This document shows positions 11,441-43,547 of a DNA stretch of 64,000 nucleotides, piece by piece. This stretch comes from an uncultured Solirubrobacteraceae bacterium (GTDB lineage: Bacteria; Actinomycetota; Thermoleophilia; Solirubrobacterales; Solirubrobacteraceae), in contig CAWETE010000001.1 of the NCBI GenBank assembly GCA_963811895.1, positions 76,160 through 140,159 on the forward strand, given 5' to 3'. The stretch's first letter is position 1. The number at the start of each line of letters is the position of its first letter. A model generated the notes under the pieces. That model was not told where the DNA came from. It was given only the letters and a program-made list of their open reading frames with translations, and ran no database searches. The position numbers and the translations under genes were made by a program.

Positions 11441-12370
11441 CTACGCGTGCGCGATGACGATCTTCCCCAGGAACTCGCCCGACGCGTAGCGCTCGAACGC
11501 CGCCCGAGCGTCCGCGAGCGCGTAGGTGCCGTCGATGACCGGCACGACGGTGCCGTCCTCGAGCAGCGGGGTGAGGCGCTCGAGCGCCTCGCGGCCCGGC
11601 CGGTGGATCACGACGCCGATCCGCTTGCGGCGCGGTACGAGCCCGACGAGCGCGGTCCAGCCGATCCGCGGCAGCGTCCCGCCGATGACTCCGTAGACGC
11701 CTCCCGGCCGCAACGCGCGTCTGCACCGGGTCGAGGCGTGCAGGTCGACGATCCGGTCGTAGCGGCCGGCGATCCGCTCCTCGCGGTAGTCGATCACCTC
11801 GTCGGCGCCGAGCGAGCGCAGCATCTCGAACTTCGACGCGCTGTCGACGCCGGTCACGACGCCCCCGGACGCCTTGGCCATCTGCACGCCCAGCGACCCG
11901 AGGCCGCCGCCGGCGCCGTTGATGAGCACCGTGTCGCCGGGCCGCACCTCGCCGCGATAGGTCAGTCCCTGCAGGGCGAGAACGCCGGCCTGCGGCACCG
12001 CGGCCGCCTGCTCGAAGGTCAGCCCGGCGGGCATCGCCGCGAGCGCGCGCTCGGGCACGCAGACGTACTCGCCGAGCCCGCCCCACCCGTGGCCCGACAC
12101 GTCGCCGTACACGTCGTCGCCGGGCCGCAGCCGCGTCACCGCCGCGCCCACCGCCTCCACGCGCCCCGCGACGTCGGCGCCCATCACGGGATGGCGCGGC
12201 CGCCGGCCCACCGTCATCCGGCCCCTGAGCAGGTCCCAGTCCCACGAGTTGATCGACGTCGCGTGCACCTTGACGAGCACGTCATCGTCGCCCTGGAGGC
12301 GCGGTTCCGGCACCTGCTCGAGCCGGAGCTCCGCGGGTGAGCCGTAGCGGTGGTAGACGACAGCCTTCAC
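11441..12370 (-). CDS. Zinc-binding alcohol dehydrogenase / NADPH:quinone reductase family (MDR superfamily) oxidoreductase
   Basis: GTG at 12370 (VKAVVYHRYG...). GroES-like N-domain and Rossmann motif LINGAGGGLGSLGVQMAKASG. 309 aa. Confidence 0.8.
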   Translation of the reverse strand: MKAVVYHRYGSPAELRLEQVPEPRLQGDDDVLVKVHATSINSWDWDLLRGRMTVGRRPRHPVMGADVAGRVEAVGAAVTRLRPGDDVYGDVSGHGWGGLGEYVCVPERALAAMPAGLTFEQAAAVPQAGVLALQGLTYRGEVRPGDTVLINGAGGGLGSLGVQMAKASGGVVTGVDSASKFEMLRSLGADEVIDYREERIAGRYDRIVDLHASTRCRRALRPGGVYGVIGGTLPRIGWTALVGLVPRRKRIGVVIHRPGREALERLTPLLEDGTVVPVIDGTYALADARAAFERYASGEFLGKIVIAHA

Positions 12371-32704: not shown

Positions 32705-34514
32705 TCCTTCGTAGCGTCGTTCTCACCGTCGTCGCCGGGCTGCTCATCACTGCGCCGGCCGCCGCTTCGCAGAAGGTCCGCAGCTACCGCGTCAGCGAGG
32801 TGCGCGACCTCCTTGACCGCACCAAGGTGACCGTGGCGGGCGCCGCGATCGTGGAGGTCGACCACGCCGAGGTGGTGGCGACCGCCAACCGGCGCGCCGT
32901 GCGCCGCCTGCGCCGCGCGGGCTTCACGGTCGAGCGGATGTCCTCGGTGCGCAAGAAGCTGCGCCGGGCCGGCGGCCGCGCCGCCGCGTTCCCGCCGGCC
33001 GACTCCAGCTACCACGACTACGCCGAGATGGCGGCCGAGGTGAACGCCGTGGCGGCCGCGAACCCGAGCATCGTCTCCCGCGCTTCAGCCTCGGCAAGTC
33101 GTTCCAGGGCCGGGAGATCTTCGCCGTCAAGGTCTCCGACAACGTCGCCACCGACGAGAACGAGCCCGAGGTGCTGTTCACCGCCAACCAGCACGCGCGC
33201 GAGCACCTGACCGTCGAGATGGCGCTGTACATCCTGCAGCCAGCTCACCGCCGAGTACGGACCGACGCGCGGATCACCAACTTCGTCAACAGCCGCGAGA
33301 TCTGGATCGTCTCGATGGTCAACCCGGACGGCGTCGAGTACGACATCGCCACCGGCGGCTACCGGATGTGGCGCAAGAACCGCCAGCCCAACGCCGGGTC
33401 GACGCGGTCGGCACCGACCTCAACCGCAACTGGTCGTTCCAGTGGGGCTGCTGCGGCGGCTCGTCCGGCACGCTTCAGCTCGGAGACGTACCGCGGCCCG
33501 TCGGCCTTCTCGGCGCCCGAGACGCAGCGTGGTGCGCAACTTCGTCAACTCGCGCGTGGTCGGCGGCGTCCAGCAGATCAAGGCGCACATCGACTTGCAC
33601 ACCTACTCCGAGCTGATCCTGTGGCCGTACGGCTACACGACCGCCAACACGACCTCGACGCTCAACGCCAACGACCGCAACGCGCACGCCACGCTCGGCC
33701 AGAACATGGCCGCCACGAACGGCTACACGCCCGAGCAGGCGTCCGACCTCTACATCGCCGACGGCACGATCAACGACTGGATGTGGGGGACGTACAAGAT
33801 CTTCAGCTACACGTTCGAGATGTTCCCGACCGGCTCGAACCCCGGCTTCTATCCGCCCGACGAGCAGATCGGCCCGCAGACCTCGCGCAACCGCGCCGCG
33901 GTCCTGCTGTTCCTCGACGCCTCCGACTGCGTCTACAAGGTGATCGGACTGGGAATGCGGCGGTCCGGCGGCCGAGAGCGTCTACTTCGACAACTTCGAG
34001 GCGGCCAACGGCTGGACGGCGCCCGCGGCCGGTGACACCGCGACCGCCGGCCAGTGGGTGCGCGGCAACCCCGCCGGGACGAACAGCGGTGGCGTCAAGC
34101 AGCTCGACGCCACGGTGAGCGGGAGCAACGACCTCGTGACCGGCGCGTCCGCCGGCGCCGGCGGCGGGTGACTTCGACGTCGACGGCGGCGTGACCACCA
34201 TCACGTCGGGGCCGATCGCGCTCAACCAGTTCGGCAGCTACACGCTGACGTTCTCGCAGTACCTCGCGCACGGCTCGAACTCGAGCAGCGCCGACTACCT
34301 GCGGGTGGGCGTGCAGGTGGGCACCACGACGACGTGGGTCTGGACCCGCACCGGCGCGGCCGCCAACCTGAACGGCGCCTGGAGCACCGCCTCGGCGTCG
34401 CTCAACCAGTTCGCCGGCCAGCCGACCGTCCGGCTCGTCGTGCAGGCCGCCGACGCGTCGACCGCCAGCCTCGTCGAGGCCGGGGTCGACGACGTCAGGA
34501 TCACGGGGAGCTAG
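32701..34514 (+). pseudogene. M14-family zinc carboxypeptidase (carboxypeptidase T-like, secreted) disrupted by at least eight 1-nt indels
   Basis: ATG 32701 (overlaps the previous stop, ATGA). Signal peptide [23 protein letters not shown]. Homologous segments are scattered over all three + frames: ...[20 protein letters not shown]..., ...[24 protein letters not shown]..., ...[27 protein letters not shown]..., ...[20 protein letters not shown]..., ...[19 protein letters not shown]..., ...[22 protein letters not shown]..., and the C-terminal domain ...FDVDGGVTTITSGPIALNQFGS...VDDVRITGS*. Example: gtctcccgcGcttcagcc where removing one g restores VSRFSLGKS. Confidence 0.7.
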
Positions 34515-35342
34515 CTAGCGGTTCGTAACCACCATCGCCGCCATCGCCTGCATCCCGCGCAGGTTGGGATGCAGCGGGGCGGCGGCGTTGCCCGGGATGT
34601 AGGGCTCCACCCAGCGGGTGCCCGACCCGGCGCACGCGTCGCGGCCCGCGCTGGCGCCGTAGACGTCGACGATCGTCGCGGCATTGGCGGCCGCCTGGGT
34701 CGCGAGCATGGCGTTGAGCTGCACCTGCTTCTCCCTCAGCCACCTCACGTCAGCGGGCGTGACGGGCATCCGCGGCCAGCAGCCGTTGCCGCTGTGGGGG
34801 AAGATCGCCGAGTAGTTGAGGACCAGCACCTTCGCGAGCGGCGAGCGGGCGTGGATGCCCTGGAGCACGGCGGCCACCTTCGGCGCGGTGGCGGCGATCC
34901 GCGCGCTGATCTGGTCGCCCCCGCGCGTGTAGCGGTCGCGGCACGGCGAGCCGAACGGCAGCGCGGAGACGCAGTCCAGGGCGAGGTCGGAGAAGCCGAT
35001 GTCGTTGCCGCCGATGCTCAGCGTCACCAGTCGCGTGTCGGCCGACAGCGAGTTGAACTGCGGCGGATTCGGGCCGGGCGAGACGTTCTGCGGCGCCGTC
35101 ATGTGGTCGGTCCGCGCGCCGCTGCAGGTCGCGTCGCCGTACTCGGCGAAGGCCAGCGTGCGCTGGGCGATGCGGCCGTAGTTGTTGCTCGACTTCAGGC
35201 AGCCGAGCGGCGCGAGCGGGTTCGGGATCAGCGGTCCCGCCGCGTACGAGTCACCGAGCGCCGTGTACCGAGGCGCCGCCTCCGCCGTTCCCGCGAAGAC
35301 CGCGGCCACCGCCATCACTGCCAGCACGACACGCACGCGCAT
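34515..35342 (-). CDS. Secreted SGNH/GDSL-family hydrolase (lipase/esterase)
   Basis: ATG at 35342 with ggggaggga RBS. Signal peptide MRVRVVLAVMAVAAVFAGTAEA. GDSY block (YTALGDSYAAG). ~275 aa. Confidence 0.8.
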   Translation of the reverse strand: MRVRVVLAVMAVAAVFAGTAEAAPRYTALGDSYAAGPLIPNPLAPLGCLKSSNNYGRIAQRTLAFAEYGDATCSGARTDHMTAPQNVSPGPNPPQFNSLSADTRLVTLSIGGNDIGFSDLALDCVSALPFGSPCRDRYTRGGDQISARIAATAPKVAAVLQGIHARSPLAKVLVLNYSAIFPHSGNGCWPRMPVTPADVRWLREKQVQLNAMLATQAAANAATIVDVYGASAGRDACAGSGTRWVEPYIPGNAAAPLHPNLRGMQAMAAMVVTNR

Positions 35343-35414
35343 GCTCCCTCCCCCTACGAAGTGACGTTTGGCGCGAGCGTATAGCGCGCAGGGCGCGACG
35401 GGAAGGACCGTGAC

Positions 35415-35720
35415 ATGGCCAAGACGATCGACAAGAAGCTGTTCAAGCACCTGAGGTCCGCCGGCGTCCGTAAGCGCGTGGCACGCGACCTGTCCAGCGC
35501 GCTCTCCAAGGCCGACGGCACGCGCGCGTCGAAGGCGGCCACCGGGGCGATCGGCGATCTGCGCAAGCTCGTCGACGAGCTCGAGGACCGCGCCCGCGGG
35601 GGCCCGCAGAAGCGCCGGGCGGCGGCGAAGAAAGCCGCGGCCACGCGCAAGCGCAGGGCGACGGCCCGCAGCACGGCCGCCAAGAGGGCCGCGCGAACGC
35701 GCTCCCGCACGAAGCGCTGA
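35415..35720 (+). CDS. Small (101-aa) Lys/Arg/Ala-rich basic protein, histone-H1-tail-like; possible nucleoid-associated protein
   Basis: RBS gggaaggac 6 nt before ATG. C-terminal half is KRRAAAKKAAATRKRRATARSTAAKRAARTRSRTKR. Confidence 0.55.
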   Translation: MAKTIDKKLFKHLRSAGVRKRVARDLSSALSKADGTRASKAATGAIGDLRKLVDELEDRARGGPQKRRAAAKKAAATRKRRATARSTAAKRAARTRSRTKR

Positions 35721-35739
35721 CAACTAAGATCGGTCGGCC

Positions 35740-36486
35740 TTGGCCGACACCGTCATCTTCATCCCGGCGTGGAACGAGGCGGCGTCGCTCCCGGCACTGC
35801 TCGAGGAGGCGCGGCGCGACCTGCCCGACGCCGACCTGCTGGTGATCGACGACGGATCGACCGACGACACCGCGGCGGTCTCGCGCGCCGGAGGCGCCCA
35901 GGTCGTCAGCTTCCCCGAGAACCACGGCCTGCGGCACGGCATCGCCGAGGGCTACCGGCAGGCGGCCACGCGCGGCTACGCGTACTGCGGCCGGCTCGAT
36001 GCCGACGGCCAGCACCCGCCGGCCGAGCTGCGGCGGATGCTCGCGATGGTCCGCAACGACGAGTGCGACGTGGCCGTCGGGTCGCGCTTCCTGCCGGGGT
36101 CCGGCGACTACGCGCCGACGCCCGAGCGCGTCTTCGGCACGTCGCTGCTGCGGCTGCTGATGCGGCTGCGGCTGGGCCAGCCGATCTCCGACGGCACGAG
36201 CGGCATGTACGCGGTCAACGAGCGCGCGCTCGGCCTGCTCAGCGATCCCTACGTGTGCGAGGCGCCGGAGGTCGAGGCGCTGATGCGGATCACCGACGCC
36301 AAGCTGCGCCTGGTCGAGGTGCCCGTGCACATGCGCCAGCGCGAGCACGGCGAGTCGTCGTTCCGCGGCCGCCGCGCGGTCGAGCTGGTGGTGACGATCG
36401 GGCTCACCCTGTTCGCGGGTGAGCTCATGCGCCGCCGTCACCAGCGGCGCCAGCAGAAGTCGGGCCTCCGGCGCCTGCGGCCCTGA
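35740..36486 (+). CDS. Family-2 glycosyltransferase (Dpm1/polyprenol-phosphate mannosyl/glucosyltransferase-like)
   Basis: TTG start at 35740. VIFIPAWNEAASLPALLEE...LLVIDDGSTDDTAAV...GRLDADGQHPP, the GT2 DxD context. 248 aa. Confidence 0.7.
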   Translation: MADTVIFIPAWNEAASLPALLEEARRDLPDADLLVIDDGSTDDTAAVSRAGGAQVVSFPENHGLRHGIAEGYRQAATRGYAYCGRLDADGQHPPAELRRMLAMVRNDECDVAVGSRFLPGSGDYAPTPERVFGTSLLRLLMRLRLGQPISDGTSGMYAVNERALGLLSDPYVCEAPEVEALMRITDAKLRLVEVPVHMRQREHGESSFRGRRAVELVVTIGLTLFAGELMRRRHQRRQQKSGLRRLRP

Positions 36487-37876: not shown

Positions 37877-37997
37877 GCCGTAGGTGTACCCGACAGGAAC
37901 GTGTCCTGCGTGACAGGTTCCATTCGAAGGGGAATCTCGGTGACGGTCATGGCGAGCATCCTGTTCCCAAGGACGCCCGCCATGACCGCCGTATTCC

Positions 37998-39329
37998 CTA
38001 GCGCTTGAGCTTGAGCGACAGGGTCGTGCTCTTCGAGCCCAGCGAGACCTTGACGCGGAGCTTGACGCTGCGGGCGTTGTCGAGCGCGTTGCGGGCGCCG
38101 CGCGTGAAGCGCAGCTTGACCGTCGCCTTGCCGGCCTTGACACGCTTGCTGCCCGAGGCGACCTTGAGGCCGCGGTCGGTGGCCGTGGCCTTCACGCGGC
38201 CGGCGGACGGCGCCGTGACCTTGACCGCGAAGCCCTTGCGCAGCGCCGTCGCCAGCTTGGTCTTGACGGCCTTCGCCTTCAGGCCGCCGCCGGAGGGGCC
38301 GCGGCCGGCGGGCACGGCGGCGGGGCCCCAGTCGGGCTGCGAGCCGCCGGGGATGACGAGCGGAGCGTTCGGCGTCGCGCCGTCGAGCGTGCAGCCGCCG
38401 GCGAAGCTCGGCACGGTGACGACCTTGATGCCGTCGTCCTCGGCCCACGCGAGCCGCCCGCCGTCGGGGGCGAAGGTGGGGGTCGAGTAGTGCCCGTTGG
38501 GGCCGCTGTAGCGGTAGCAGATGCTCGGGCGGGTGGAGACCGGCGCCTCGCTGTCCTTGAAGGTGGTCGGGAACTGGGGGACCGAGTACACGGTGAGCGT
38601 GCTGTCGTTCTCACCCGTGGCGAACGCCATCTTCGCGCGGTCGCGCGTGATGTCGCCGCCGCTCGTGTGCGGGTTGCCCTCGACCATGTCGCTGAACCAG
38701 TTGTGGACGAGGTTGCCGGAGTCGCCGTCGCTCAGCGTGTCGAGGATCACGTCGGCATTCGGCATGTGCGTGGGGTCGCTGAGCATCGTCGTGTCCTCGT
38801 CGACCCACACCGGGTTGCGCCAGCCGGTGTGCTTGCCGAGAGCGGGGTCGTCCCAGCCGGTCTGGCGGTCGGCCCACGAGTAGCCGGTGCCGCCCTCGTT
38901 GATCCCGACGAAGCAGGTCGGCGGGAAGCAGGTCGGGCTCTGGCTCTGGGTCATGTAGTGGAACGTGTAGGCGACCTTCGTGCCGTCCGGCGAGATGGCC
39001 GGGTCGAAGGGGCCGTAGAAGGTCTTGGCGGGAGCCGGCCGCGTGTCGCTGACCGGGGTGTCGAAGTCGGCCAGCACGTTGCCCTGGCGGTCGAGCCGGT
39101 GCAGGCGCACGCCGGTGAGGGCGATCATCGTGCCGTCGTCGGCCTGCGAGACGTCGGCGTAGCGGCCGCTGGTGGTCACGCGGTACTGGCGCGAGCCGTC
39201 GCCGGTCGACAGCCAGACGTCGCCGCCCTTGATGTAGGCGATCGAGTCGGCCATGGCGGCCGGCGCGGCGATCACCAGCACGAGCAGCGCGCCGCACACC
39301 GCGAGGAGTCGGGAGAGGGGGGAGGACAT
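37998..39329 (-). CDS. Secreted hypothetical protein, probable beta-propeller (PD40/TolB-like) with Lys-rich C-terminal tail
   Basis: ATG 39329 with gggggagg RBS. Signal peptide MSSPLSRLLAVCGALLVLVIAAPAAMA. 443 aa. C-terminus KAKAVKTKLATALRKGFAVKV...LKLKR. Confidence 0.65.
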   Translation of the reverse strand: MSSPLSRLLAVCGALLVLVIAAPAAMADSIAYIKGGDVWLSTGDGSRQYRVTTSGRYADVSQADDGTMIALTGVRLHRLDRQGNVLADFDTPVSDTRPAPAKTFYGPFDPAISPDGTKVAYTFHYMTQSQSPTCFPPTCFVGINEGGTGYSWADRQTGWDDPALGKHTGWRNPVWVDEDTTMLSDPTHMPNADVILDTLSDGDSGNLVHNWFSDMVEGNPHTSGGDITRDRAKMAFATGENDSTLTVYSVPQFPTTFKDSEAPVSTRPSICYRYSGPNGHYSTPTFAPDGGRLAWAEDDGIKVVTVPSFAGGCTLDGATPNAPLVIPGGSQPDWGPAAVPAGRGPSGGGLKAKAVKTKLATALRKGFAVKVTAPSAGRVKATATDRGLKVASGSKRVKAGKATVKLRFTRGARNALDNARSVKLRVKVSLGSKSTTLSLKLKR

Positions 39330-39882
39330 GGCGACGATCGTGGACCGCGCAACCAGCGCCGGCATCGGGGGAACCCCTAATGATCCGGGTATAGGCGCGA
39401 GATGTCGCGCTTCACGGAACGCATCACGCGTCACCTCGGGCGGCCGGTCGAGGCCGCGTGCGCCGTCCGGCCGCCCTTCACCACGCTGGCGATCGCGCTC
39501 AGGGCCGGGGCGGGCGCGGAATCGGCTCGCTCCTTGGGCGGTCCGCTGCTGGCCGCCTGCCGGTGGCCGATCGCCGCCTACGTGATCCTCTGGTTCGAGA
39601 CGCGGGGCAGCGGCACGAGCCTGAACATGGCGCTCGTGCTCTTCGACGAAGAGGTCGAGCTGGTGCAGCTTCGCGTGATCGGAAACCCGCTGGTGAGGAC
39701 GCTGAGCTCGATCCCCTACGCCGACATCGCGGGCGTCGAACGTGGATGAAGGGTTCCTCGAGCTCAAGGTCACGATCCGCACGTCGCGCGACACGCTCAA
39801 GGTGGCGGGCGGCAAGCGCGGCATCGGCGCGGCGCCTCCGGTGATCGATGAGCTGCGGCGTAGGATCGCGATATGAAGGTCG
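39033..39882. repeat. Copy 1 of an ~850-bp tandem direct duplication (5' end of the beta-propeller gene, the divergent promoter region, a small plus-strand gene and the first 11 nt of the glyoxalase gene)
   Basis: 39033-39470 is ~99% identical to 39889-40345 (about 5 differences). The small-gene bodies are only ~75% identical. Both copies end ...ctgcggcgtaggatcgcgatATGAAGGTCGT. Confidence 0.8.
39402..39876 (+). pseudogene. Small hypothetical membrane protein, paralogue copy 1 (frameshifted near 39730)
   Basis: MSRFTERITRHLGRPVEAACAVRPPFTT... is homologous to 40261..40734. After ...PYADIAGVE the frame must shift +1 to continue ...VDEGFLELKVTIRTSRDTLKVAGGKRGIGAAPPVIDELRRRIAI*. In-frame stop at 39749. 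Confidence 0.55.
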
Positions 39883-39888
39883 TTGGTG

Positions 39889-40188
39889 GGAGCGCGGCCG
39901 GGTGTCGCTGACCGGGGTGTCGAAGTCGGCCAGCACGTTGCCCTGGCGGTCGAGCCGGTGCAGGCGCACGCCGGTGAGGGCGATCATCGTGCCGTCGTCG
40001 GCCTGCGAGACGTCGGCGTAGCGGCCGCTGGTGGTCACGCGGTACTGGCGCGAGCCGTCGCCGGTCGACAGCCAGACGTCGCCGCCCTTGATGTAGGCGA
40101 TCGAGTCGGCCATGGCGGCCGGCGCGGCGATCACCAGCACCAGCAGCGCGCCGCACACCGCGAGGAGTCGGGAGAGGGGGGAGGACAT
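39889..40188 (-). pseudogene. Duplicated 5' fragment (start codon, signal peptide, first ~100 codons and promoter) of the beta-propeller gene 37998..39329
   Basis: ATG 40188 with the same gggggagg RBS. Encodes MSSPLSRLLAVCGALLVLVIAAPAAMADSIAYIKGG...DTPVSDTRP, identical to the parent. Then it runs into unrelated sequence. Confidence 0.7.
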
Positions 40189-40260
40189 GCCGACGATCGT
40201 GGACCCCGCAACCAACGCCGGCATCGGGGGAACCCCTAATGATCCGGGTATAGGCGCGAG

Positions 40261-40734
40261 ATGTCGCGCTTCACGGAACGCATCACGCGTCACCTCGGGC
40301 GGCCGGTCGTGGCCGCGTGCGCCGTTCGGCCGCCCTTCACCACGCCCGCGATCGCGATCGGGGCCGGTGCGGGCGCCGCGATCGGGTCGATCGTGTGGGG
40401 CGGGCCGTTCATGGCCGCCGCCGGTGTCGTCGTCGCCTACCTGATCCTCGGGCTGGCCACGCGGGGCAGCGGCAGGACGCTGGGCATGGCGCTCGTGGTC
40501 GAGGACGACCACGTCGACCTGCTCCAGATGAGCGCGTTCGGCAACCGGCCGGTGGGGACGCTGCGGTCGATCCCGTATGCCGACATCGCCGGCGTCGATA
40601 CGCGCGACTGGCTGCTCGAGGTCCGGATCGCCATCCGGACGAACCAGGACGTGCTCGAGCTGGCGGGCGGCAAGTTCGGCGTCGGCGCGGCGCCACCGGT
40701 GATCGAGGTGCTGCGGCGTAGGATCGCGATATGA
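40261..40734 (+). CDS. Small hypothetical membrane protein (157 aa), paralogue copy 2; possibly a bacterial PH-like (bPH/DUF304-type) fold
   Basis: MSRFTERITRHLGRPVVAACAVRPPFTTPAIAIGAGAGAAIGSIVWGGPFMAAAGVVVAYLILGLATRG...IEVLRRRIAI*. Two hydrophobic segments, then a soluble C-domain. The fold guess is unverified. Its stop overlaps the glyoxalase ATG (ATGA). Confidence 0.5.
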   Translation: MSRFTERITRHLGRPVVAACAVRPPFTTPAIAIGAGAGAAIGSIVWGGPFMAAAGVVVAYLILGLATRGSGRTLGMALVVEDDHVDLLQMSAFGNRPVGTLRSIPYADIAGVDTRDWLLEVRIAIRTNQDVLELAGGKFGVGAAPPVIEVLRRRIAI

Positions 40735-41132
40735 AGGTCGTCCACACCTGCGTACGCGTCCGCGACATCGACGCGTCGGTCCGCTTCTACGAGGCGCTGG
40801 GCTTCGAGCGCCGGGGCAAGCTCCAGTTCGAGACCGCCTACAACGTCTACATGGGCCTGCCGGGCGACGGCGACACGCTCGAGCTGACCGTCAACCACGG
40901 CCGCGAGGAGCCGTACGACATCGGCGAGGGCTACAACCACATGGCCATGACGGTCGGCGACATCCACGCGGTCGTCTCCAGGCTCGCCGACCACGGCATC
41001 GAGCCCGAGAAGGCGCCCTACCACCCGGGCGGCCGCAACGAGCTCGGCCCGATCTGCTTCGTCACCGACCCGGACGGCTACCGGATCGAGCTGATCGCCG
41101 GCGAGGAGTTCCCCACCCCGCAGGACGACTAG
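40731..41132 (+). CDS. VOC-family protein / glyoxalase I-like (lactoylglutathione lyase family)
   Basis: 133 aa. MKVVHTCVRVRDIDASVRFYEALGFE...GYNHMAMTVGDIHAVV...GYRIELI. Confidence 0.75.
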   Translation: MKVVHTCVRVRDIDASVRFYEALGFERRGKLQFETAYNVYMGLPGDGDTLELTVNHGREEPYDIGEGYNHMAMTVGDIHAVVSRLADHGIEPEKAPYHPGGRNELGPICFVTDPDGYRIELIAGEEFPTPQDD

Positions 41133-42469
41133 CCGGCCGCGAGGTGGCGCAGCCCGTTGATGCCGGGCGCGAAGTAGTACTCGCCGCCGCGCATCGTGAC
41201 CACGCGCGACAGCGGGCCGCAGAAGAACGGCGGGCGGCCGGGGACGGTCATCTTGTTGATGCTCTCGTTGTCCATCGGGCCGATGATCGGGTCCTGGTCG
41301 TCGCCGAGCCGGAACGGGTTGCCGGTGTTCGCCCACTGGGCCTGGACGAACTCGAACTGGCGGGCGAGGCTGACCTGGACGGTCATGAAGATCACGCCGC
41401 GGTCGGCGCCGTCGTCCTCGGCTCCCTCGGGCAGCATCTCGCCGTAGGTGATGCCGCGGCGGATCAGGCGGTGGCGGTTCACCAGCTTGCCCTCGAACGG
41501 CATGCTCAGCCGCGGGTTCATGCGGCGGATGTGCGACCCGACCGGGCATCGCAGGCCCTCCGGGTCGCGCCCGTAGTCGAACGCGTTGTTGCGCGTCTTG
41601 TCGGCCACCACCGCCGGGTCCTCGGCGTGCGGTGAGGAGTCCAGCGGCGTGCCGTCGCGCCAGCGGCCGACGAGCTTGGCGGCCAGCAGCTCCTCGCCCC
41701 CCGGATAGAGCGCCGCGGCCTGCTCGAGCTGGCGGCGGAAGGCGGCGACGTCCTGGCGCAGCTTGCGGTAGACGACGTAGGAGCCGTTGCGGCTGAGCTC
41801 GTCGGGCCGCGGGGCGGCGGGCAGCGTGCCCTGCTCGTCGGGGTAGCCGAGGATGAACTCGCCGGCCGCGATCGGCCGCCACTCGCCGTTCTTGGCGGGG
41901 GCGCCGGCGCCGGGATGGTCGTCGAAGCGGCTGCCCTCGATCGCCGGCTGGGAGAACCCGTCGGCGTAGCCGAAGTGCTCGCGGCCGGTGGGCAGCACGC
42001 CGCCGACCTGCGTCACGACCACGCTGGCGCCGCCGCGGCGCTCCACCAGCTCGCGGATCGCCCGGTCACGCTCGGCCAGCGCCGCCGCGTCCTTGGCGCT
42101 GATCATCACCAGCACGTGCGCGTCGCGCCTGCGAAAGCAGGCCTCCCAGTGCTCGGGTGCGCTCTCGCCGACGTCGCCGAGCAGCTCCGCGCGCGAGGCC
42201 ATGCCGTCGCGGAACTCGGCCGGGAAGCCGGCCAGCGAGTCGTCGCCGACCCCGAGCGCCCGCAGCCCTTCGCAGCTGAACGCGAGGTTGATGCCCGAGT
42301 CGGGCTTGACGTCCCAGCGCTCGGCGGTGATGACATCCGCGATCGAGTCGCTCAGGAAGGCGCGCGCCTTCACCGCGTCCTCGACGCGCAGGAACAGGTA
42401 GCCGGCGGCCGGCAGGCGGTAGCCGCGGACCAGGAAGCCCTGGATGTTGGGGAAGTCGAGCGCGGTCAG
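41129..42469 (-). CDS. Dye-decolorizing (DyP-type) peroxidase, long C/D-class-like form; no canonical start codon, putative CTG start overlapping the upstream stop
   Basis: DyP motifs: N-terminal (L)TALDFPNIQGFLVRGY, GYADGFSQP (GxxDG), proximal-His region GSHIRRMNPR. No ATG/GTG/TTG in frame between 42470 and 42679. CTG 42469-42467 forms CTGA with the TGA of the upstream gene. Confidence 0.6.
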   Translation of the reverse strand: MTALDFPNIQGFLVRGYRLPAAGYLFLRVEDAVKARAFLSDSIADVITAERWDVKPDSGINLAFSCEGLRALGVGDDSLAGFPAEFRDGMASRAELLGDVGESAPEHWEACFRRRDAHVLVMISAKDAAALAERDRAIRELVERRGGASVVVTQVGGVLPTGREHFGYADGFSQPAIEGSRFDDHPGAGAPAKNGEWRPIAAGEFILGYPDEQGTLPAAPRPDELSRNGSYVVYRKLRQDVAAFRRQLEQAAALYPGGEELLAAKLVGRWRDGTPLDSSPHAEDPAVVADKTRNNAFDYGRDPEGLRCPVGSHIRRMNPRLSMPFEGKLVNRHRLIRRGITYGEMLPEGAEDDGADRGVIFMTVQVSLARQFEFVQAQWANTGNPFRLGDDQDPIIGPMDNESINKMTVPGRPPFFCGPLSRVVTMRGGEYYFAPGINGLRHLAAG

Positions 42470-42999
42470 AACGCCTCCAGGAAGCGCGCCTTCAGCGCCT
42501 CCGGCTCGAGCCCCTGCGCCTCGAGGGCGAAGGCGATCGCGCGCGCCCGCATGTCGAGGTTCGCGCGCACCTGCTCCAGCGTCTGGCCGCCGTAGGCGGC
42601 GAAGAACAGCGCCGCCTCGAGCTGGTGCGCCTTGAGCCAGGGCGCGAAGCCGGGGCCGCGGCCGGGATAGCCGCGGCAATGGCCCCAGACGGCGTCGGCG
42701 TCCTCGCCGAGCCCCGTCTGCAGCTGCTCGAGGTAGGCGTCGAGCTCGCCGTCGAAGTTGCTGGTGAACAGCAGGCGGGCCGCGGCGAGCGAGTCGCGGC
42801 GGCGCTGCCCGTGGCCCTGGTACTTGACCTGGTCGATCACCACCCAGCGGCCGAGGTGCGTCCCGGGCACGCGCGCGAGCGGGCTGGCCTCGCCCTCGGG
42901 CAGCGCGTCGAGGTGAGCCGTCAGCTCGGCCGCGTGACCGTCGAGGATCGGCGTGATCACGGTCAGCGCGTACGCCTGGCCTGAGACGTTGCGGCTCAT
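42466..42999 (-). CDS. Uncharacterised conserved protein (177 aa), paralogue B of a tandem pair upstream of the DyP peroxidase
   Basis: ATG 42999 overlaps the paralogue-A stop (ATGA). Shares with A: TV(L/I)(S/T)P, H(F/Y)ARWVV(V/I), L(M/L)F(E/T)SNF(N/D)G, D(Q/A)Y(I/L), W(G)...GYPG. No family recognised by eye. Confidence 0.55.
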   Translation of the reverse strand: MSRNVSGQAYALTVITPILDGHAAELTAHLDALPEGEASPLARVPGTHLGRWVVIDQVKYQGHGQRRRDSLAAARLLFTSNFDGELDAYLEQLQTGLGEDADAVWGHCRGYPGRGPGFAPWLKAHQLEAALFFAAYGGQTLEQVRANLDMRARAIAFALEAQGLEPEALKARFLEAF

Positions 43000-43547
43000 A
43001 GGTCGTGCTGGATCGACGTCAGCATGTCCTCGTAGGCGGCCTTGAACGCGGCCGGATCGAGCGACGGCGCGCGGGCGCGCAGGTCGTCGAAGGCCTCGAC
43101 CACCTTGGCGGCCGAGATGATCTCGGTCGTCGTCGAGCCGGGATAGGCGTTGTAGTAGTGGTTGGCGACGTACTCGTTGGCGCGGATGTAGTCCTTGAAC
43201 GGCTCGACCGGGATCGGGCCGGGGAAGCCGTAGGACGTGCCCCAGATGCCCTTCATGCGCGAGGGCACGACCTCCGAGAAGGCGTCGATGTACTGGTCCC
43301 AGCTCCCGTTGAAGTTGCTCTCGAACATCAGGTACGGGTGGTGCAGCTTCTCGCCGCCCTCGCCGTCCGGGAACCGCTTGACCACCACCCAGCGGGCGTA
43401 GTGGATGAACGAGAGCATGTGCAGCTTCTTGAGCGTGGCCGTCACGTTCCGGCCGACCCAGAACACGATCGGAAGCAGCAGCCGGCCGGCCGGCTTGTAT
43501 GGGGAGAGGACGGTGATCGCCGTCGCCCTGCCCTCGACGTTGGCCAT
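42996..43547 (-). CDS. Uncharacterised conserved protein (183 aa), paralogue A of the tandem pair upstream of the DyP peroxidase
   Basis: MANVEGRATAITVLSPYKPAGRLLLPIVFWVGRNVTATLKKLHMLSFIHYARWVVVKRFPDG...YLMFESNFNGSWDQYIDAF...IWGTSYGFPG... Confidence 0.55.
   Translation of the reverse strand: MANVEGRATAITVLSPYKPAGRLLLPIVFWVGRNVTATLKKLHMLSFIHYARWVVVKRFPDGEGGEKLHHPYLMFESNFNGSWDQYIDAFSEVVPSRMKGIWGTSYGFPGPIPVEPFKDYIRANEYVANHYYNAYPGSTTTEIISAAKVVEAFDDLRARAPSLDPAAFKAAYEDMLTSIQHDL

Follow-up and report, generated by a model that had tools for sequence, protein, structure and literature searches.

We analysed a stretch of 64,000 nucleotides (nt) from an uncultured Solirubrobacteraceae bacterium (contig CAWETE010000001.1 of assembly GCA_963811895.1), called the window below, with the focus on a tandem repeat of about 850 bp at positions 39018 to 40741. 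The repeat unit runs from inside a gene for a secreted beta-propeller protein, through a short intergenic region and a small gene for a predicted membrane protein, to the first bases of a glyoxalase-like gene. In related genomes the small gene is found in two allele classes, named A and B here, and the window holds one copy with an A-type core and one with a B-type core. The arrangement belongs either to a known type of event or to a known type of assembly fault; it is present in only one contig, and its sequence carries signs of weak read support.

The repeat and the genes it covers

The features of the locus are given below in window coordinates, where L007 and L008 are two related genomes with a single copy of the A type and of the B type, respectively, and the evidence used is given in brackets.

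37998-39365, minus strand: full-length gene for a secreted PD40/TolB-like beta-propeller protein (open reading frame (ORF) list; Pfam PD40, 23.4 bits)
39018-39024: left parental microhomology, GAAGGTC, inside the propeller gene (alignments and microhomology test)
39026-39486: arm 1, which spans the start of the propeller gene (codons 1 to ~112), the 36-bp intergenic region and 85 nt from the 5' end of the small gene (three-way comparison)
39402-39875, plus strand: small gene, copy 1, A-type at the 5' end and in the last codon and B-type in the core
39487-39855: B-type allele tract (site classification and identity by segment)
39499-40224, minus strand: chimeric ORF of 241 amino acids (aa), or 229 aa from the ATG at 40188 (ORF list)
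39875-39883: novel junction, the glyoxalase start (ATGAAGGTCGT) fused to propeller codon ~112, with GAAGGTC at 39875-39881 (alignments)
39882-39905: junction patch, with an added G at 39882, T at 39887, an added G at 39894 and G at 39901 relative to native sequence (comparison with L007 and L008)
39906-40345: arm 2 (comparison with L007)
40261-40734, plus strand: small gene, copy 2, intact, A-type, 157 aa (exact protein P0044)
40731-41132, plus strand: VOC/glyoxalase-I-like gene (Pfam Glyoxalase, E = 1.6e-17; NCBIfam)
40733-40739: right parental GAAGGTC, in the glyoxalase gene (alignment)

Comparison of the window with itself confirmed the head-to-tail direct repeat that had been reported in a preliminary description of this DNA, with the boundaries now placed at 39018-39883 for copy 1 and 39875-40741 for copy 2 and with no spacer between them. 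The repeat period is 857-858 bp, the unit is 856 bp in a single-copy relative, and the two copies overlap by the 7 nt GAAGGTC. The mosaic of ~99%, ~73% and 100% identity along the unit was also reproduced by alignment. The arms (39047-39486 versus 39906-40345) have 6 mismatches, at 39282, 39331, 39347, 39356, 39451 and 39467, and hence ~98.6% identity; the middle of ~360 bp (39487-39850) has ~72-75% identity between the copies with small insertions and deletions (indels), and the 32 bp at the 3' end of the unit (39852-39883) are 100% identical.

The sequence at the joint is …GATATGAAGGTC(G)TTGG…, which is novel, gapless and free of any run of N. If the extra bases near the joint are polishing errors, the clean junction would be ATGAAGGTC followed directly by TTGGCGGG. 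We drew 200,000 random junctions in L007 and found that microhomology of at least 7 nt arises by chance with P = 0.002, or 0.006 with one base of slack. The 7-nt microhomology, given this chance probability of 0.002, argues for a microhomology-mediated event in real DNA and against an arbitrary join made by an assembler. A strict pattern of the junction had no match in the public JGI metagenome contigs, and a relaxed pattern had 14 matches there, all in unrelated contigs of lower GC content without homology to the locus. The changes in the junction patch are two one-nt insertions and two substitutions, and the G at 39901 is the state of L008, i.e. B-type.

The propeller protein has 455 aa if started from the ATG at 39365, the length also called in relatives, or 443 aa from the ATG at 39329, and its first ~112 codons lie within repeat copy 1. 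In copy 1 the small-gene call is cut to 115 aa (39402-39749), and P0031 is exactly this ORF; it lies together with P0044 on one NCBI/ENA contig of 336,510 bp. An extra A at 39739/39740 shifts its frame into a stop at 39747-39749, and removing this A restores a reading frame of 157 aa; there are several further frame-disturbing indels in copy 1. The stop codon of copy 2 overlaps the start of the glyoxalase gene (ATGA), and by this overlap the small gene (40261-40734) is translationally coupled to the VOC/glyoxalase-I-like gene, the first 11 nt of which form the right end of the repeat unit.

The preliminary description had the duplication leave a truncated 100-aa fragment of the propeller gene under its own promoter, and the length of this fragment is not borne out. 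The ORF runs out of frame across the junction and reaches 229 or 241 aa, with the propeller signal peptide and ~110 residues followed by out-of-frame sequence antisense to small-gene copy 1, up to a stop at 39499-39501; it has no Pfam match. A scan detected no consensus promoter or terminator, a result that is uninformative at ~72% GC, and the duplication of a promoter follows only from the whole 36-bp intergenic region being repeated. This divergent intergenic region has a palindrome, GGGGGAACCCC (39367-39377 and 40226-40236), which is the same in every lineage examined, the B clade included, while the neighbouring bases vary.

We predicted the structure of the small protein using AlphaFold2 (predicted local distance difference test, pLDDT, 76). 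The model has an N-terminal helix and a strand, then a transmembrane hairpin with helices at residues 27-45 and 48-67, a six-stranded sheet and a C-terminal helix. Its best structural matches by Foldseek are PTB and PH domains with E-values from 1.6e-4 to 1e-2, including the DUF1696 PH-like structure 3dcx. The product of the small gene is thus modelled as a membrane protein of PH/PTB-like fold, in which the first strand is followed by an inserted transmembrane hairpin. The PH-like beta-sandwich, the C-terminal helix and the transmembrane hairpin of the bacterial PH-like (bPH) membrane proteins are all present in the model; the protein has no Pfam, NCBIfam or PADLOC match at E <= 0.01, and hence no match to a curated bPH family. 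Searches for defence or immunity functions with PADLOC, NCBIfam and Pfam gave no match for the small protein, the propeller protein or two ORFs further downstream, and on these sequence searches the locus has no link to a known toxin-immunity or defence system.

Copy number and allele classes in related genomes

All relatives examined have a single copy of the locus, which answers the comparison of copy number proposed in the preliminary description. The A-type relatives L001, L002, L006, L007, L025 and L026, on long contigs from six ENA samples, have one copy each in the gene order propeller, small gene, glyoxalase and DyP, and L003, L004, L005, L008, L009 and L010 are likewise single copy. 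The protein cluster of P0031 has only one member. L007 is, by its sequence, a strain-level relative of the window strain: the left flank is 99.3% identical (24 substitutions and 0 indels in 3.5 kb) and the right flank 99.7% (16 substitutions and 0 indels in 5 kb). Since L007 is 99.3-99.7% identical and yet single copy, the duplication should be recent. L008 is a metagenome-assembled genome (MAG) of the same species, with flanking genes 95-99% identical to those of the window and of L007.

The small-gene family falls into class A, with copy 2 and the genes of L001, L002, L006 and L007, and class B, with the genes of L003, L004, L005 and L008 and P0052; the protein identity between the classes is ~60%. 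A site-by-site classification found copy 2 to be A-type at every informative site. Its protein is 97-99% identical to those of L001, L002, L006 and L007, and copy 2 as a whole differs from L007 by only 2 substitutions. Arm 2 is B-type at 0 of 49 informative sites and differs from L007 at one position, 40033, where it has the state of L001 and L002. Copy 2 is, as judged from these sites, the strain's own A-type cassette.

In copy 1 the A-type states last up to 39462, B-type states follow over 39487-39818, and the sequence returns to the A type at 39871-2. Its B tract is 92% identical to L008 overall, against ~71-72% to copy 2, and reaches ~98% identity to L008 in clean stretches (39575-39682). 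Comparing the core three ways with L007 (A) and L008 (B), we found 82 of the 105 informative sites to be B-type and 21 to be A-type, with 3-5 private substitutions. The same comparison over arm 1 gave a match to A at 46 sites and to B at 6 (39174, 39282, 39331, 39347, 39451 and 39467), and the B-type state at 39174 is also present in L001/L002. The switch from A to B is placed between 39462 and 39487; the 16-nt identity block there belongs to a region of 80-85% identity, and isolated B states occur back to 39282. In L003, L004, L005 and L008 the B-type gene is a normal ortholog present in single copy. The frame-corrected copy 1 has nothing above 77% identity in a set of 5.8 billion proteins, and the best donor, L008, came from a scan of genome contigs. 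The core of copy 1 is, by this comparison, a second and pre-existing allele class, closest to the single-copy allele of L008.

These results change how the mosaic is read. Because each core matches a single-copy allele elsewhere, the mosaic is an allelic difference at a hypervariable locus and not a divergence after duplication; the preliminary description was right that neutral divergence after the duplication does not explain it, and mistaken in taking the 75% middle for a diverged copy of the gene, as this is the second allele class. Two of the origins that it listed survive, namely recombination between diverged alleles and a problem of assembly. The third, gene conversion between the copies, is not needed, since the arm is conserved at the DNA level across lineages (86-93% identity even in other species) and copy 2 is native.

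The locus is part of a hypervariable island of ~690 bp that comprises the signal-peptide codons of the propeller gene, the 36-bp intergenic region and the whole small gene. The island lies at ~40054-40740 of the window (and again at 39195-39883), at 4794-5480 of L007 and at ~5790-6490 of L008. Identity between L007 and L008 is 65-88% within it and 95-100% in its flanks, and the core of the small gene is the fastest-evolving part of the neighbourhood in every comparison. The ratio of nonsynonymous to synonymous substitution rates (dN/dS) is 0.4-1.0 for all allele pairs, with the synonymous divergence compressed by the GC bias, so this ratio does not separate a functional allele from a pseudogene.

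P0054, from a JGI contig of 2410 bp, is a B-type small gene of another lineage in which the N-terminus and the transmembrane hairpin are missing. It is fused to a frame through the upstream intergenic region, and is a second example of rearrangement at the small gene. The cluster members P0043 and P0045 were considered as further rearrangements and rejected, as they are trimmed or frameshifted gene calls.

Consensus quality of the duplicated stretch

The copy 1 core has ~10 private indels of 1-2 nt, all within 39516-39740, and 2 more are found in 39882-39894. Their positions are at the two edges past which reads from a single-copy strain would run on into duplication-specific sequence, and 39741-39881 has none. 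By comparison, there are 0 indels between the window and L007 in 9.4 kb of flanks. Small indels are about as many as substitutions between the B tract and the intact L008 allele, whereas natural intact B alleles, which are 15-20% apart, have no indels among one another. Neutral decay, as known from bacterial pseudogenes, would be expected to leave ~1-3 indels for that many substitutions. The states found only in B are limited to 39282-39901 plus 40584. The flanks, where we looked for a trace of B-type backbone reads, have such states at 2 of 212 informative sites, which speaks neither for nor against a B-type backbone.

The nearest species-representative genomes are uncultured Solirubrobacteraceae MAGs of the MFD…bin series, from the long-read catalogue of Microflora Danica. 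These MAGs were built from Nanopore reads using Flye (--meta --nano-hq) and one round of Medaka, from soils with high microdiversity (PMC12313526), and the window was presumably assembled by the same route. The pattern of private indels points to a Nanopore consensus that was made in the duplication-specific stretch from few reads and a mixed-strain pile-up.

As the private indels are confined to this stretch, the frameshift in small-gene copy 1, and with it a pseudogene, is probably not real. The extra A reported there earlier is indeed present in the sequence; it is not the sole change of its kind, being one of ~10-12 private small indels. A consensus error is therefore a likelier cause of the frameshift than pseudogenisation.

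Origin of the tandem arrangement

We suggest that the arrangement is a real structural variant, though recent and probably in the minority, which arose by a join at microhomology and was then overlaid by polishing, an explanation to which we give about an even chance. One illegitimate join at GAAGGTC would have occurred in a real DNA molecule, so that a B-type cassette came to adjoin the next one in head-to-tail order, and the variant would be carried by a minority of the molecules in a mixed Solirubrobacteraceae population. The long-read metagenome assembler would have kept the variant, and polishing by reads from single-copy strains would have overwritten all alignable sequence, leaving the stretch beyond the reach of such reads (~39487-39905) with mixed states and 1-nt indel errors. 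The sharp boundaries between A and B, the scattered B states of arm 1, the frameshifts of copy 1 and the junction patch might then all be consensus artefacts over a real junction. One intact copy of each native gene is kept, and the expected phenotype is therefore neutral.

The join could have come about in two ways. B-type DNA might have been integrated additively into an A-type chromosome, by a process akin to homology-facilitated illegitimate recombination (HFIR) or to interchromatid pairing, as analogy with the known systems described below would suggest. Alternatively, a plain tandem duplication might have taken place in a co-occurring L008-like (B-type) strain; the A-type reads, being the majority, would then have replaced its arms, second core and flanks during polishing. 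This second version, or a donor that already carried the junction, agrees better with the B-type base found past the joint at 39901.

Known systems offer partial parallels to such a variant. HFIR and the additive integration of variant cassettes are seen e.g. in the orphan immunity-gene arrays of the type VI secretion system (T6SS) clusters of Vibrio cholerae (PMC5361080, citing de Vries & Wackernagel 2002, Prudhomme et al. 2002 and Meier & Wackernagel 2003). The window is like them in that a diverged allele of another strain adjoins the resident one, with apparently conserved sequence on one side and a short-microhomology joint on the other, and in that the resident is kept and shifted downstream. 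It differs in having one extra cassette in a single contig, no detectable effector, immunity or defence function, and a donor-type rather than a recipient-type base just past the joint. The transformation-induced tandem duplications (merodiploids) of Streptococcus pneumoniae can form when exogenous DNA pairs at two places and bridges sister chromatids, leaving donor sequence at the novel junction (PMC3784515). A tandem duplication with donor sequence at a novel junction would be common to both; however, the pneumococcal duplications span 100-900 kb between long repeats (insertion sequence elements), against a unit of 856 bp and a microhomology of 7 nt in the window. Spontaneous microhomology-mediated tandem duplication, by replication slippage or illegitimate recombination, shares the head-to-tail order, the 7-nt microhomology at both parental sites and the single-copy ancestral state. 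A simple tandem duplication gives identical copies, whereas the copies here are of different allele classes, and therefore either DNA from another strain or an overlay by mixed-strain polishing is required.

Several points weigh against a real variant overlaid by polishing. The read depth, the minority status and the haplotype of the junction-bearing molecules are all inferred, and so is the sequencing method of the window, from its relatives. The copies are exactly the two alternative alleles and the right edge of the repeat is the right edge of the island, and a haplotype-driven false duplication predicts the same. The A-type 'AT' at 39871-2, within B-type sequence, is without a clean explanation. 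We also considered whether A-type patches within the B core prove a consensus of mixed origin and downgraded this argument, as most such states (~13 of the 21 A-type core sites) are found in other B alleles too. The evidence from substitutions is thus weak, and the case for a mixed consensus rests mainly on the excess of indels.

A pure assembly artefact could be proposed instead, i.e. a heterotype false duplication in which the A and B haplotypes of two co-occurring strains were set in tandem by the assembler or by a chimeric read; we regard it as possible, if doubtful. It would account for the copies being the two allele classes that alternate at this locus in 95-99% identical backgrounds, for a right end of the unit no more than 11 bp from the island edge, for the indel-rich and poor consensus of the duplication-specific stretch, and for a duplication unique to the window contig and found neither in 11 other loci nor among public metagenome contigs. 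Against this, the unit reaches ~215 bp beyond the island at its left end, and the join is gapless, has no run of N and falls in a 7-nt microhomology that is unlikely for an arbitrary join (P = 0.002-0.006). In repeat-graph assemblers a bubble of two haplotypes would have no back-edge to yield a tandem path, which also weighs against an artefact, and it seems very improbable that, in a soil metagenome, two pieces of one 1-kb locus were ligated into a chimera.

The setting is nevertheless one in which false duplications would be expected, as the relatives stem from Nanopore/Flye soil metagenomes with high microdiversity and false duplications in assemblies arise mainly from haplotype divergence (PMC9516828). 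The heterotype false duplications described so are from assemblies of diploid eukaryotes, where the copies are usually separated by gaps or placed on different scaffolds (PMC9516828). The window resembles these in having two diverged haplotypes of one locus in one assembly, in affecting the most divergent regions and in a probably reduced support per copy, as the indels would suggest; it differs from them by its gapless join within microhomology.

We consider it unlikely that the window holds a fixed and accurately assembled product of HFIR, with a homologous crossover at ~39470-39487, an illegitimate join at GAAGGTC and a foreign copy that decayed to a pseudogene. This is a documented route to additive insertion, and it agrees with the foreign-allele origin of the tract, with the one homologous-looking boundary (the 16-nt identity block) beside one microhomology boundary and with the retention of every native gene in intact form. 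The ~12 private indels against ~13 private substitutions in 400 bp are far from the ratio of natural decay, however, while the arms and 9.4 kb of flanks have none, and the absence of the duplication from L007 at 99.3-99.7% identity leaves little time for decay. The position 39901, past the illegitimate joint, is in the B state, where HFIR with a linear donor predicts recipient sequence. A crossover of this kind, in a region of 80-85% identity and accompanied by single B sites as far as 200 bp to its left, would also be atypical.

A more far-reaching possibility, which we hold to be quite improbable, is that the small gene and the signal-peptide region of the propeller gene form a population-level cassette under diversifying or balancing selection, and that the tandem is a true initial stage in the stacking of alleles by additive integration, with the B-type gene intact in the real molecule; such stacking may be likened to the orphan immunity arrays of T6SS, contact-dependent inhibition (CDI) and Rhs loci. 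An old tandem duplication, with the left arm recently homogenised by gene conversion and the small-gene paralogs diverged in place, would fit the identity mosaic taken alone and can otherwise hardly be credited, as the 11 related loci are all single copy, including the one at 99.3-99.7% identity, copy 2 is orthologous to the single copy of A strains and the copy 1 core to that of B strains, and the arm is conserved across lineages anyway.

For annotation, a second copy of the small gene, its frameshift and the chimeric ORF of 229-241 aa should count as established genes or pseudogenes only with read support. As to method, structural variants with low support in a long-read metagenome assembly can be recognised from the sequence alone, by private 1-nt indels that gather only in that part of a duplication which reads from single-copy strains cannot reach. 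The ~690-bp island is the more durable biological observation, with allele classes ~28% apart in genomes that are 95-99% identical, and it would mark the small PH-like membrane protein, on the sequences compared, as a fast-evolving and recombining locus.

The two ORFs downstream of the DyP peroxidase gene (177 and 183 aa; 42466-43547, minus strand) are conserved and match nothing in Pfam, NCBIfam or PADLOC, and their synteny is kept in all relatives. L009, a more distant Solirubrobacteraceae MAG, has an array of ~61-bp tandem repeats (93% identical) at 11978-12359, near the end of the locus. In L002 (4358-5522) and L008, the ROK gene and the 3' end of the propeller gene are separated by an additional ~1.1 kb that is not in the window (37977-37998), L001, L006 or L007. 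A second variable region lies at 34060-35745. Its part at 35381-35745, with a basic ORF of 101 aa (35415-35720), is missing from L002 and L007, and the part at 34060-35381, the GDSL-lipase region, has just 91% identity to L007 with 10 gaps.

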